DNA from: a virus
Lineage: Duplodnaviria; Caudoviricetes
Virus record (IMG/VR): IMGVR_UViG_3300027983_002388
Direction: 5' to 3' (one strand)
DNA length: 64,000 nt
The notes beneath the pieces were generated by a model that saw only the letters and a list, made by a program, of their open reading frames with translations, did not search any database and was not told the DNA's origin. The position numbers and the translations under genes are program-made. This document shows, one piece after another, positions 15,969-20,586 of the stretch. The first letter of the stretch is position 1. Each line of letters begins with the position of its first letter.

Positions 15969-16173
15969 TCATCTCATCAGGGGTCATCTCAATTCCACTC
16001 TCGGCGGCATGAAGTCTTAAATCAAACTTTTCCTTATTTGACATAAGACCAACGGGCTTGCGATTGAGATTTCTCTTCAAACTGCGTAGTCTTTTAAGAA
16101 TGCCGAGAGCCTGCTTGGGCGTATATTCTTTGCCCAATTCAGCCAACCTATTGCGAAGTTCATTCTCGTTCAT
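15919..16173 (-). CDS. Hypothetical protein (84 aa)
   Basis: ATGA-coupled to the upstream ORF. Confidence 0.65.
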   Translation of the reverse strand: MNENELRNRLAELGKEYTPKQALGILKRLRSLKRNLNRKPVGLMSNKEKFDLRLHAAESGIEMTPDEMNDVMEIIIQIQEADFE

Positions 16174-16910
16174 TGGACTTCCTCGAACTCGTGTGGGAAC
16201 ATATCTCTAAATGTACGGACAACTAAGTCCGTAATGCACGGTTTATAGAGATCAGGATCGAAATTCATTCTTTTATAATCTTCCGGCTTCAGAATTGCCG
16301 CAATATGCGGCGACATCGCAATATAGTACGGACTGATTTTGCCGAAATTAACCCAGCGAAAGATGTTGTTGTTGATGTAGGACTCCCGGTACTTTTCAAG
16401 ACTTGGACTGGCACCAAAAGTTTTGGCAAAGAACTCTTTGGTTCGCTCAAGTCCTTCGATGGCTTTGATAACGCCGGGACCAATAGGCTGGGATATTTCG
16501 GACGGTTTCGCAGAGATGGCATCATATTTTCTTTTCCATAGTTTCCACCGCTTCCAGGCTTTTTCTCCCACCAAACAATTGGTATCGATGAGAGGATGAC
16601 CTTTGCCGGTATTGATGTGTCGGAGAACATCAAGCTGCGCCCGGACATAAAAGGGATATTCTTTTTCTTCGAGTACGCCCTGTGTTTCACGAGCCAGCTT
16701 GTAGCAGACTTTGAATATCAGGGACTTCCGAGGATCGCCCTGCTTCATGGTCGTATGCTGATATTCAGGGAATACTTTACGACTTCTATCGAGCCAGAGC
16801 AAGCACAATTTATATGCTTTCGCCTCAAGTTCATCCATTTCGTAGTCAACAATTGCATCGAGACGCATATCTTTGATCTCCGGGAGTTCTTCTTTTTTGT
16901 TTTCAGTCAT
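16170..16910 (-). CDS. Hypothetical protein (246 aa)
   Basis: Long ORF, SD GAGGT. Confidence 0.8.
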   Translation of the reverse strand: MTENKKEELPEIKDMRLDAIVDYEMDELEAKAYKLCLLWLDRSRKVFPEYQHTTMKQGDPRKSLIFKVCYKLARETQGVLEEKEYPFYVRAQLDVLRHINTGKGHPLIDTNCLVGEKAWKRWKLWKRKYDAISAKPSEISQPIGPGVIKAIEGLERTKEFFAKTFGASPSLEKYRESYINNNIFRWVNFGKISPYYIAMSPHIAAILKPEDYKRMNFDPDLYKPCITDLVVRTFRDMFPHEFEEVQ

Positions 16911-16961: not shown

Positions 16962-17924
16962 TCAGAGAATGGCTCTCACAATAGCAGAATAATCAGTTTG
17001 ATCCTGACCTTCTGTGCCATTCCAAGTTTCATTGATTTTTCTATCACCCTTTGCATTCTGCGACACATTTTTGTCGATCCAATATTTGCTCTCAACTGCC
17101 GAGAGATGCTTAATATTCATGCCCATTTGCGGAGCAAAATCAGCAGGCAACTCTGGCGTGAAACAAATCGTAGACCACAATGAAGGAGGAATTGCCAATA
17201 CGACAATATCAGCTTCGTGGATCGAACCATGAGCATCAACAACAACGACGGATGGCTCGGTGATGATGTGAACTACGGGGCAATTCAAGATCAATCGAGT
17301 GCCTAATTTTTGAGCAAACTTCAAAGCGAATTGCTGATTGCCGCCCTTTGTGCGATAGCTCTCTGTATCGGCCCAAAATTTATCGAAACCACCGCCTCTG
17401 ACGAGTACGATATTGCCCAACAAACTTTGTTTATCGGTAGAGACGCCGTTGTCACTTGACACTTGAATATCAAACAAATATTTGGCAATAGACGAAGCAT
17501 CTTGAGTGTGAATCCACTCTCGCATGGATATATTGTCCAAATATTCAGCTTGTGGCGACAGCCAAGGTTGATTTACGTCTATGTTTTCAGCCAATACCGA
17601 TAATGCAATTTGCATTTTGAATATTTCTGATTTGATATTTTCGTATTCACCTTGCGTCAACTTTTGATTTTGCAAAATGATCGGCGTTTCCGCTTCACTA
17701 TCTTCGGCAAGGAGAAACTCCAAACCAAATTCACGAGCGTATTCGATCAAGCAATGGTGATGAGAGCCAATAAGCTCTCCACCGAATTCGACGTTCATGC
17801 CAGAGATGAAATCGTCTCGACTGTATACTCGGCCACCAACTCGATTACGAGCTTCCAAGATTTCGACAGTGTGACCAGCGGTCATAAGCTCGTATGCACA
17901 AGCAAGACCGGAGAATCCTTCCAT
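16962..17924 (-). pseudogene. Flavin monoamine oxidase fragment, truncated at both ends
   Basis: GFSGLACAYEL...EARNRVGGRV...EFGGELIG; first Rossmann strand disrupted upstream; C-terminal FAGEH/GxMEGA region absent. Confidence 0.7.
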
Positions 17925-17989
17925 AGTAAAAAAATAACACTACCGTATTTATGCGCAACAACCAAACTATAACAAAAAACAACGATGCG

Positions 17990-18555
17990 AATGAATGGAA
18001 GCGGTAAAAATACACGAAATCAGGCTTGATCTGCATGAGCTTCAGGTCTAGGATATTCACGTTCGGTGAAATAAGCGTGTCCAAATAACCGAACATAAAA
18101 CCTAAAAAGGCATACAGGTAATCGCTGTCGAGGGTAAAACTTCTTCAGATTTCGGAAAGCCTTAGACACTACAGCCCCAATACCCCAGATTGGTTCGAGG
18201 GCCTGATTTACTGGATAGGGTTTCTTCCTCAACAGAGGTCTTAGGTGGCAATGGGCCGACGTGTAGCGGCTAATCGGAGAGCAATCTCCGAGGATTGAAA
18301 AGAGCTAGGATTCAACACCCACCAACGGCGTGCCTCGTCGCTCAGATAAATCGAGGCTGGGATAAATCACAAAGAAACCGATATAATCCGCTGAACCTAT
18401 ATTACGCCTACCCGGAAGGGTGAGTGTAAATCAGAAAGAGCTTAGAGCTAACTTATTGTTGGGATTACAGCCGACTTTTCGGCTATTGTATAAGTGACTA
18501 ATTTCAGTTACTTCTACAATAGATAATCCCAATAATAAGAAGGCTCTTTTTGTAT
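17990..18555 (+). ncRNA. Candidate large structured non-coding RNA (family unknown; strand inferred from GNRA loops)
   Basis: No credible ORF in ~780-nt gap; hairpins 18275-18290 (GCAA loop), 18410-18421 (GGAA loop), 18469-18484, and a 16-bp helix 18452-18467/18524-18539 with a G-U pair. Confidence 0.55.
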
Positions 18556-18710
18556 TATAAACTAATTTACAAGAAGCGCTTGTTGTACAACAAACAAAGA
18601 GGCAACGTGACAGAACAGTCTTGCAATCAAAGGGTTTGCGTCTTATACTTAAAATGAAATGTGCCTCCCGTTGGCACGCACGCACGCACTAAACCGCATG
18701 ATTGAGGCAC

Positions 18711-20021
18711 ATGGATCACTCTCAACTGGCAAAGGCTCTATCAGATTCGATGGGGCCAAATGTGTATATCTGTTGTAAGCCGGAAGTTCTTGACTTCACG
18801 GATCGGGTAGTTGTTCCTGAACTGCAAATATTCAGCCAGAGTGGGCTAGTCACGATTATGCTCACGGATGAAATATTGCCGATGCTTTTGCCTATGCTTC
18901 GATTGAGCGTATTTGGCAAGGGCAACAAGATTGTCACTTGGAATTGGAAGAACTTTGTAAGTTTCGTTCTGGCCAAGACTGGCAAGTCGTATTCCATTGA
19001 TGGGGCTATTATCGACTTGAAGATAATCGAAACTTATTGTGGGCGCAAGTTCAAAGCTCCCAAAACACTGATCGAGGCCATGAACAGGTTGAAAGATTTA
19101 ATCACCACAGGTATGTGGAAAGAGGTTGAGTCTGTATATCGCAAGGTTCATATTCCCCTCATCACCACGGTTATCCCGCATCTTGAAACCACAGGTATTC
19201 TCAACACTCAGTTGGGCAATAAGGTTTATGCCTATTACGAGATCAATGGCCAGGAGAATGGCCGTCTGAAGTGTTCTGGCGAGTATCAGCAGGGCTATGT
19301 GCCGCACGCCATGAAGCCAGAAACGAGGCAAATTCTAAAGCCTCGCACAGCCGATGAGTTGTTCATGGTCTTTGACTACAAGGGCATGGAAGTCTTCATG
19401 TTGGCTTGGATGAGCCAAGACCCGCTCTTGATGGAGCTTTGTCGTGAACCGGATGTTTATTTTGCCTTGTTCGAGAAGATTACCGGCAAAAAGTGCGAAG
19501 GAAAAAATGATCGTGAAATGGCGAAAAAATTCTTTCTGCCGGTTATATATGGACAGTCGGCTTATTCATTAAGTCAACGCTGCGGTGTCGCTTTAGATCT
19601 CGCAGAGATTATTACAGAACGCATTGACGCTTTGTTTCCGGCTGCTTTGGCCTTCATCGAGGGTTATCAGAAGCAGCTTCAAGAACTCGGATATGCCAAA
19701 GACATATTTGGCAAACGCCGCTCTAGCTTCGAGGAAGGCAAAGAATATTCTGTCAGAAATTTTGCAGTTCAGTCACCAGCATCCGTTGTGTGCCTGGAAA
19801 AGTTAGCCCACCTATATTTCGCCCTCAAAGATAAAACCGATCTCGCCTACACCGTCCATGACGGTTACGCTGTGTATGCAACGAAGGAGAACTGGAAGAC
19901 CATATACAAAATTGGTCGTGATGTTCTTACTGGCGATTCCGATTTTTGTCCCGGTTTACGACTTAGAGTAACTTGTCGTGCCGGTCGCAATCTTGATGAC
20001 CTGAAGTTACTCCGCACCTAG
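18711..20021 (+). CDS. Family A DNA polymerase, compact, thumb subdomain missing
   Basis: ENGRLKCS (TGRLSS-like), motif A VFDYKGME, motif B REMAKKFFLPVIYG, NFAVQSPAS, motif C VHDG. Confidence 0.85.
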   Translation: MDHSQLAKALSDSMGPNVYICCKPEVLDFTDRVVVPELQIFSQSGLVTIMLTDEILPMLLPMLRLSVFGKGNKIVTWNWKNFVSFVLAKTGKSYSIDGAIIDLKIIETYCGRKFKAPKTLIEAMNRLKDLITTGMWKEVESVYRKVHIPLITTVIPHLETTGILNTQLGNKVYAYYEINGQENGRLKCSGEYQQGYVPHAMKPETRQILKPRTADELFMVFDYKGMEVFMLAWMSQDPLLMELCREPDVYFALFEKITGKKCEGKNDREMAKKFFLPVIYGQSAYSLSQRCGVALDLAEIITERIDALFPAALAFIEGYQKQLQELGYAKDIFGKRRSSFEEGKEYSVRNFAVQSPASVVCLEKLAHLYFALKDKTDLAYTVHDGYAVYATKENWKTIYKIGRDVLTGDSDFCPGLRLRVTCRAGRNLDDLKLLRT

Positions 20022-20028
20022 AGGACCA

Positions 20029-20586
20029 ATGTTAGACATTTGCATAAATTACAGTATCAACGAAGAAGAGTACCTAGAGCTTGAACATCGTTTCGGTCGT
20101 CTCTGTTGGCACGCCGCTCACGAACTCAAGAAAAAGAACTCTCGCAACAACTACACCGATGATCCCGAAGATATTAAGCAAGAACTCCAGATGTCTATGC
20201 TTCGGGCCGGTAGCTATTACAAGCGACAGATATACATTGAAAAATGTCTTGCCGTTACAAAAAAATATGCTACTGACCCTCTCATGCAACATATCATAGA
20301 AGAGTTAGAGAGCTTATGGGCGAACCGAACTCGACATGGCGCAAATCGCCAAAAGTTTGGGACGTTTCAAGAGCAGCTACTCCAAAAAATCGTTCGGGAG
20401 ATTGTCCCGAAGGATGAGCGGCCCAATAAGAAAGAAAACTTGAAGATCGACGCCAAGTTTGCTACTTATTGCAAAGCTATTGTTTGGAATGGCCAGAAAA
20501 GCATGGGCAAAAAGATAACCAGAGAGAAAGCAATCCGATCTGGCCAAGTAAGCCTTTCCGAATTCGATTACTTGGGTACGGTTTGA
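20029..20586 (+). CDS. Sigma-70 region-2-like protein (candidate gp55-type late sigma factor)
   Basis: EDIKQELQMSMLRA...KFATYCKAIVWN resembles sigma region 2; no region 4. Confidence 0.4.
   Translation: MLDICINYSINEEEYLELEHRFGRLCWHAAHELKKKNSRNNYTDDPEDIKQELQMSMLRAGSYYKRQIYIEKCLAVTKKYATDPLMQHIIEELESLWANRTRHGANRQKFGTFQEQLLQKIVREIVPKDERPNKKENLKIDAKFATYCKAIVWNGQKSMGKKITREKAIRSGQVSLSEFDYLGTV

Follow-up and report, generated by a model that had tools for sequence, protein, structure and literature searches.

Large RNAs of complex fold that lack a known job, such as GOLLD, ROOL, OLE and raiA, are rare and have repeatedly led to new biochemistry. The stretch of phage DNA analysed here (IMG/VR record IMGVR_UViG_3300027983_002388, Caudoviricetes; 64,000 nucleotides (nt), hereafter the window) holds a folded non-coding element on the + strand, located in a gap of 777 nt (17925-18701) between diverging genes and followed by the gene for a short PolA-type DNA polymerase. 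Like GOLLD (RF01183) and ROOL (RF03087), this element is hundreds of nt in size, combines covarying helices with pseudoknots, is carried by phages, lacks coding potential and has a function that is not evident from its context. It differs from both in having no match in Rfam 15, in being tied to a polymerase gene rather than to tRNA clusters, and in occurring as a single copy.

Three further described systems bear comparison with the element. The group I intron core (RF00028) resembles it in the order of the strands of helices H3a and H8, in the GNRA loops and in the variable peripheral domains, but the element has no match to the intron model, no exons or splice sites and no conserved guanosine-site pair, while its inner domain is closed by helix H3b and contains no P6. 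The ColE1 RNA II and the T4 oriF and oriG transcripts are likewise several hundred nt long and lie by replication genes at a strand switch and skew minimum, and folding matters for the function of RNA II; the covarying pseudoknots observed here, however, exceed the needs of those primers. The translational operator of gene 43 in T4 and RB69 is likewise an RNA element that precedes a DNA polymerase gene in phages, but consists of a single hairpin of ~36 nt overlapping the ribosome-binding site, whereas this RNA is ten times larger and a promoter lies between it and the start codon.

A probable RNA family upstream of the polymerase gene

The element is probably a genuine structured RNA of the + strand, belonging to an undescribed family and homologous to the canonical form of that family described below. 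As far as searched, the family is confined to one clade of huge freshwater phages, occurs as one copy per genome and always lies between a conserved divergent 240-amino acid (aa) gene and the polymerase gene. Relatives were collected by searching IMG/VR and the JGI metagenomes with the window polymerase, which yielded loci at 40-89% protein identity. In all 19 distinct loci first checked, the polymerase gene is preceded by a gap of ~480-1000 nt, on the far side of which lies a divergent gene. A gap of at least 480 nt was found in 24 of 24 distinct polymerase relatives with readable upstream DNA (40-89% identity), 19 of which contain an RNA with seven nested helices. Four loci whose polymerases are 89% identical to that of the window have the window gap in common at about 86% identity (the window type). 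The gaps at the other loci have no sequence similarity to that of the window but are alike among themselves, sharing an ACUGAG start and several motifs. The canonical RNA in these gaps is ~330-400 nt long, begins with ACUGAG and comprises at least seven nested helices and two pseudoknots.

A covariance model (R1) was built from four sequences with a hand-drawn structure, and nine sequences realigned with R1 gave a second model (R2) of 171 positions and 37 pairs, covering H1, H2 with its inner stem, H3a, H3b, H4 and H5. R2 matches 17 members (E 1e-33 to 1e-2) and later matched three more. Standard pairs occupy 94.3% of the cells in the 17-sequence alignment (A8) and 69.6% in shuffles, the pairing percentage being inflated by the fitting of A8, like A5 and A6, to the model. 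Both sides change in 30 of the 37 R2 pairs of this alignment, and with the partners slid by 1-3 columns only 37-50% of cells are paired and the covariation score is 0.08-0.13 instead of 0.63. RNAalifold had earlier recovered H1, H4, H5, H3a and H3b with compensatory changes from plain MAFFT alignments, and H3a alternates in the family between ACCU/AGGU and ACUU/AAGU. The first pseudoknot (PK1) pairs the loop of H2 with a strand 66-117 nt beyond the end of R2, with five to six Watson-Crick pairs in 16 of the 17 members and about six different sequences (CGUACU, UGUACU, AGUAUC, UAUGCU, GUACCC, CUGUA, GUAUC). Helix H8 joins the strand between the 3' strands of H3b and H3a to the strand after the H6/H7 hairpin and a conserved junction, GUUUARGA. 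It has at least five Watson-Crick pairs in 13 of 15 members, in about ten variants, and crosses H3a, thereby forming a second pseudoknot (PK2).

This covariation among the collected homologues agrees with the proposal of a structured RNA in the initial annotation of the window, which a model had made from the sequence. That annotation also favoured a + strand RNA over DNA palindromes, and among the base pairs in the relatives 39 cells are G.U and five are A.C, which identifies the polymerase-sense strand as the functional one. No open reading frame (ORF) is conserved in length or frame across the element. The family had been left unassigned, and it stays so: Rfam 15 gives no match at the gathering threshold over the whole window, and with E relaxed to 10 only chance matches appear in the gap and in ten relatives (a microRNA, a small nucleolar RNA and a CRISPR-DR9 fragment), with no GOLLD or ROOL match in the window, the gap or the ten relatives. 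A blastn search of the gap against 50,697 phage records gave no match, and full-text literature searches returned no description of this RNA.

The synteny was also assessed free of the polymerase search, with a degenerate DNA pattern derived from the RNA alone and scanned over IMG/VR. Its 23 matches included three known members and three new members that pass R2 at about 100 bits, and all three new members lie between a homologue of the divergent 246-aa gene and the polymerase and 185-aa genes. In the window and its relatives the RNA stands immediately before the short PolA gene and in the same orientation. A single copy was found in each of the three large contigs searched (172, 381 and 127 kb). 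In prokaryote genomes the pattern gave 106 hits, and none of the 80 loci retrieved from these passes R2, giving no sign of a host-encoded relative. The distant polymerase relatives in LR756511 (33% identity) and at locus L041 (28%) have no R2 match. The DNA runs containing the window sequence are for the most part from freshwater, and CheckV puts the completeness of three related contigs at 40% (172 kb), 46% (223 kb) and 79% (381 kb), which points to phages of roughly 430-480 kb.

Probable remodelling of the window copy

Comparison with the canonical RNA indicates that the window copy is a recently remodelled member of the family, in which the double-pseudoknot core (18061-18169) was kept, the H3b-H4-H5 domain was lost and a 385-nt 3' part was gained. 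Five further loci were fetched from 168 listed polymerase relatives; polymerases 87% and 85% identical to that of the window are accompanied by the window-type RNA, and those 77%, 76% and 72% identical by the canonical one, as is that of locus L034 (78%). The window type was thus seen with polymerases of 85% identity or more and with no others, and the canonical type at 72-78%, suggesting that the window type is a young derived form.

Between 18095 and 18163, the A-rich junction, H3a/H8, the hairpin and the conserved junction follow one another in the family order, with H3a and H8 invariant in the window type. The conserved junction reads AUUUAGGA in the window-type sequences, as in the canonical members. 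PK1 is GUGUC/GACAC, GCAUC/GAUGC or GCGUC/GACGC in the five window-type genomes, fully complementary in every case, and both H2 and H6/H7 covary within this group, the upper stem of H6/H7 staying paired in its variants (GAGGG/UCUUC, GGGAUA/UAUUCC, AUGAAA/UUUCAU). Over the full window-type structure, 12 pairs change on both sides in the five sequences, whereas shuffles give 5.4 and slid controls 1-5. The H3b-H4-H5 inner domain is absent from the window, which is read as domain loss in a derived lineage, and in locus L176 a small GAAA hairpin stands precisely where that domain would have been. The string AUGGAAGC, considered as a 5' motif common to the window and the family, was dropped as it is absent in L175 and L176.

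The 3' part that follows (18170-18552) is peculiar to the window type. Its first portion, 18170-18400, is 96.5-97.8% identical to the relatives, whose polymerase gene matches at 75-76% of third and 96% of second codon positions, while the 5' core of the RNA is 74% identical in the same relatives. A hairpin of 52% identity lies inside the conserved block, with three different stems (ACCC/GGGU, CAAC/GUUG, CGAU/GUCG) under a constant GGAA loop. A hairpin this divergent within a block of 97% identity argues for long divergence under strong constraint and not for recent transfer. Variants in four DNA metagenomes sit in predicted loops of the central domain, the inner helices of which never vary, so that their pairing is only predicted. 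The terminal domain is 93-94% identical to the relatives, with two compensated pairs in a hairpin at 18484-18521; it is possibly the 3' end of the RNA or a putative terminator, and the scan tool called no terminator there.

The hairpins listed in the initial annotation were for the most part recovered in the minimum free energy and RNAalifold folds: 18227-18238 (CCUC/GAGG), 18275-18290 (GCAA loop), 18331-18356, 18410-18421 (GGAA loop) and the branched 18435-18552 with its 16-base pair (bp) helix. The exception, 18056-18070, is disrupted in relatives (UUCAC to UUGAC), in which the competing helix H2 is kept by compensatory changes. The GNRA loops drawn in that annotation withstood comparison, GCAA being replaced by GUAA, still a GNRA loop, in variants, and GGAA being constant over three stems. 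Its proposed pairing of GGAUUG with UAAUCC involves invariant sequence, and the consensus fold assigns both strands other partners. The best-supported part of the element is the 5' core, and not the hairpins first listed. The statement that the gap is the largest non-coding one in the window holds roughly, a crude measure (ORFs of at least 100 aa) ranking it second with 729 nt uncovered.

Several observations weigh against a homologous, independently transcribed RNA in the window. With default filters R2 has no match in the window gap; with filters off, the best match in the gap (17976-18125, + strand) is collinear and covers H2, the A-rich junction and H3a, with 12 nt where H3b-H4-H5 would be expected, but scores only 6.3 bits (E 0.08 over 821 nt), and the homology between the window and canonical forms therefore rests on manual mapping and synteny. 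A motif string comprising the junction, H3a and the second junction has one match in the 64-kb window (18097-18156, + strand) against 0.07 expected, although its ambiguity codes were chosen with the window in view, making this partly circular and weak support. The five window-type sequences show no variation in H3a, H8 or any inner helix of the central domain, and the folding energy of the core is no better than that of shuffles (z +0.2 on the + strand). To these are added the model-fitted alignments mentioned above, the lack of a convincing sigma-70-like site upstream of the RNA in the window type, and the result of the searches of RNA runs for the gap sequence, which returned only runs sharing 5% of the sampled words. 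Finally, the stretch from the RNA to the polymerase gene contains no called intrinsic terminator in any member scanned, so that read-through is possible.

Features, folding energy and transcription signals

The coordinates of the features are given in Table 1.

Table 1. Features of the RNA locus in the window, with folding z-scores obtained from 200 dinucleotide shuffles.
Feature	Position	Strand	Description	z (+)	z (-)
246-aa protein gene	16170-16910	-	Constant divergent neighbour of the RNA
Amine-oxidase-like gene	16962-17924	-	Left flank of the gap
Whole element	17976-18555	+		-3.8	-3.4
5' part	17976-18170	+		+0.2	-1.9
5' region	17976-18060	+	Poorly conserved even in close relatives; alignments A1, A7, A10
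Hairpin of 5' region	18028-18033/18043-18048	+	Lower 3 bp constant, upper part variable; 82.9% of cells paired, 0 both-side changes
Helix H2	18061-18067/18088-18094	+	20-nt loop; compensatory changes in window-type group; same position as H2 of R2
PK1	18077-18081/18165-18169	+	GUGUC (H2 loop) with GACAC; three complementary variants
A-rich junction	within 18095-18119	+	AUAAA, before H3a; R2 alignment, filters off
H3a	18100-18103/18116-18119	+	ACCU/AGGU; R2 alignment, family covariation
H8	18107-18111/18159-18163	+	AAGGC/GCCUU; 5' strand between the H3a strands
Hairpin H6/H7	18124-18148	+	Base CUG/CAG; upper stem variable
Conserved junction	from 18149	+	AUUUCGGA; family consensus GUUUARGA
Small predicted hairpin	18174-18202	+	GCCC/GGGC; RNAalifold consensus only; invariant in five genomes
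Central domain	18203-18434	+	Window-type lineage only; includes the GCAA hairpin 18275-18290 and the GGAA hairpin 18410-18421	-1.8	-1.7
Central-domain closing helix	18203-18211/18426-18434	+	9 bp; one A-U to G-C compensation in L175, across 220 nt
Terminal branched domain	18435-18552	+	8-bp basal stem, 16-bp helix, two hairpins, then U-run	-8.7	-8.1
Sigma-70-like promoter	18621-18649	+	TTGCAA, 17 nt, TATACT; promoter scan; conserved in close relatives
DNA polymerase gene	18702-20021	+	PolA type, short, 439 aa; Pfam DNA_pol_A, PHROG DNA polymerase; constant downstream neighbour of the RNA
185-aa protein gene	20029-20586		Follows the polymerase gene

A folding energy beyond that of dinucleotide shuffles, the lack of which the initial annotation had named as refuting, was found for the terminal domain, on both strands equally, and not for the rest of the element. 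The energy signal of the whole comes almost wholly from 18435-18552. The case for the RNA rests on conservation and covariation rather than on energy, which is uninformative as to strand.

In the canonical members, a sigma-70-like site (at least 9 of 12 positions) occurs within 150 nt upstream of the RNA in 15 of 19 cases, while the frequency in control windows is about 10%. Twelve of these members have a -10 element that ends 29-58 nt before ACUGAG, and a small leader hairpin is frequent between this promoter and ACUGAG. The promoter between the RNA and the polymerase gene in the window has counterparts of the same kind just before the polymerase start in L036 and L020, that of L036 ending 7 nt before the start codon.

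Possible roles of the RNA

The best guess, which can only be tentative, is that the element functions as a stand-alone folded RNA, predicted to be a ribozyme or to have a protein partner. Such an RNA would be transcribed as its own unit, as suggested by the canonical promoter before ACUGAG and the second promoter before the polymerase gene, and would act in early infection by virtue of its fold, either as a ribozyme or in partnership with a protein. This guess is based on the conserved, doubly knotted core, the exchangeable peripheral domains, the RNA's own promoter and its fixed place in a module of core replication and late transcription. Catalytic RNAs and the RNAs of ribonucleoproteins (RNPs) evolve in this manner, as a conserved knotted core with exchangeable peripheral domains. 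It is rather improbable that the family represents a new class of large catalytic or RNP-forming RNA in the replication machinery of huge phages, either as a partner of the unusually short PolA polymerase or as a structured RNA with which replication starts here; if it does, the window lineage would show a core that survived the swap of a whole peripheral domain. There is also a slight chance that the function is neither that of a stand-alone RNA nor one of the leader and origin or primer roles considered next.

The element would be a cis-acting leader of the polymerase operon if transcripts from an upstream promoter passed through the fold into the polymerase and 185-aa genes, and if the fold sensed a ligand or bound a protein, for example the polymerase as in the case of the T4 gene 43 operator, and so set read-through or translation. 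The RNA does lie on the polymerase strand, directly upstream of the gene, in every lineage seen; insertions occur only between the RNA and the 240-aa gene (the amine oxidase in the window lineage, a 310-aa ORF in L016) and never between the RNA and the polymerase, from which no called terminator separates it. Such a role is nevertheless somewhat unlikely. The conserved promoter at 18621-18649 intervenes before the polymerase start, so that the main polymerase messenger RNA need not include the element, while a length of 330-560 nt with two pseudoknots far exceeds known phage operators and most riboswitches, no alternative terminator and antiterminator pairing was seen, and the last part of the window copy is a long stem and then a U-run. 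A replication origin, at which the transcript would make an R-loop or become a primer and the fold would position or stabilise the hybrid or recruit the replisome, is unlikely on balance, even though the divergent intergenic region sits at the minimum of the window's cumulative GC skew, near 18 kb, and among replication genes (the polymerase, a DnaB-like helicase and, on a weak gp59-like lead, the 240-aa gene). This minimum coincides with the switch in gene orientation and need not reflect replication. Repeats do occur at L018:1737-1903, with five to six 21-nt iteron-like direct repeats (consensus about TTGAATCTATTTATTTTTAA) just upstream of the RNA, and at L020:2354-2411, with three 13-nt repeats containing TAGAGAAG between the RNA end and the polymerase promoter, the latter of which may be operators or binding sites; they were found, however, in only two of the six regions examined, with none of note in the window. 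The terminal domain, being equally stable on both strands, could act as DNA, but known origin transcripts need no covarying pseudoknots, and the many G.U pairs in the covariation indicate selection on RNA and not on DNA hairpins.

Conserved regulation at the DNA level, through promoters, operators and cruciforms with incidental hairpins, is very improbable: although the region is one of divergent promoters and its strongest energy signal is the same on both strands, 30 of 37 pairs and two long-range pseudoknots keep their pairing through double changes, G.U exceeds A.C by 39 to 5, and DNA-binding sites yield no covariation across 70-220 nt. The initial annotation had seen a loose resemblance to a group I intron, which found no support, and a group I-like ribozyme that stands by itself, or a group I intron that degenerated and lost its exons, is very doubtful. 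The order of the strands in the family (H3a 5', inner domain, H8 5', H3a 3', hairpin, 8-nt junction, H8 3') corresponds to P3, P4-P6, P7, P3', P8, J8/7 and P7', reportedly as set out by Michel and Westhof in 1990, and GNRA loops on variable stems and exchanged peripheral domains would also fit, yet any H-type pseudoknot with inserts shows the same order. Neither the window gap nor any of ten relatives matches Intron_gpI, even with E relaxed to 10, and the H3b-closed inner domain is without a separate P6. By inspection, the H8 sequences (ACAGAG, GUUGG, GCCGA, CAACU, CAGCA and others) have in common no G-C pair of constant position and orientation that could serve as a guanosine site. The upstream gene lies on the other strand, there is no upstream exon, and no conserved start codon precedes the RNA; a stop codon stands immediately before the polymerase ORF, and a promoter-like site also intervenes in the window, L020 and L036. 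Other known RNAs considered were RNase P RNA, prompted by GCCUAGAU-like strings and dropped with no Rfam match; the sarcin-ricin loop, prompted by a ACGAGAGG loop in some members and dropped as other members have ACAAGA there; and a tRNA-like T-arm at GGUUCGAGGGCC, the flanks of which do not pair by inspection.

Whether as a stand-alone RNA or in another role, the family is apt for study, with two covarying pseudoknots, a fixed place by the polymerase gene and about 170 polymerase relatives available for a deep alignment, and the window form is a natural domain-swap variant that shows the indispensable core. It adds to the picture of huge phages as carriers of many RNA genes of their own. If tied to replication or to the polymerase, it would be a new kind of phage replication component, and in the case of a cis leader it would rank with the largest known from phages.

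Neighbouring genes and other observations

The window polymerase gene is followed by the 185-aa gene and by genes for a cobalamin adenosyltransferase, a NUDIX hydrolase and the DnaB-like helicase. Its nearest polymerase in the phage collection (33% identity) is that of LR756511, an uncultured phage of 595 kb. The 185-aa protein is better conserved than the polymerase, with 63% identity to its LR756511 homologue and 74-78% identity in relatives with polymerases of 51-60% identity. It has no match in Pfam, PHROGs or PDB sequence searches; an Atlas lead points to sigma-70 region 2, and a late sigma factor like T4 gp55 would be consistent with its size and position. The divergent 246-aa protein (~240 aa in the clade) is 38-46% identical in relatives and has no Pfam or PHROG family; the Atlas offers one weak lead (0.88), the N-terminal domain of the helicase loader gp59 of T4. 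In LR756511.1, a 387-aa ORF without a Pfam or PHROG family (L042:1841-3004) stands in the position that the RNA has in the clade, with homologues of the 246-aa and 185-aa genes on either side.

The amine-oxidase-like gene is confined to the window-type lineage, where it is inserted between the 246-aa gene and the RNA. Its product in the window is 320 aa long and covers only positions 1-275 of the 443-position Pfam profile, while ORFs of 426-428 aa occupy its place in L013, L014 and L176, and the window copy may thus be truncated. In one relative, the gene after that for the NUDIX hydrolase encodes an 885-aa product with Hom_end_hint and Hom_end matches, which suggests an intein in the helicase gene. 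In L034, the locus with the closest canonical relative (polymerase 78% identical), a tandem duplication of ~45 nt occurs within the 3' region of the canonical RNA, at about 2240-2330. Just past the polymerase promoter of the window, 18655-18701 holds a 12-codon ORF containing a GC-rich hairpin (18661-18677) and then a short run of CACG repeats; among close relatives, no other part of the gap varies as much (68-76% identity, with insertions and deletions).

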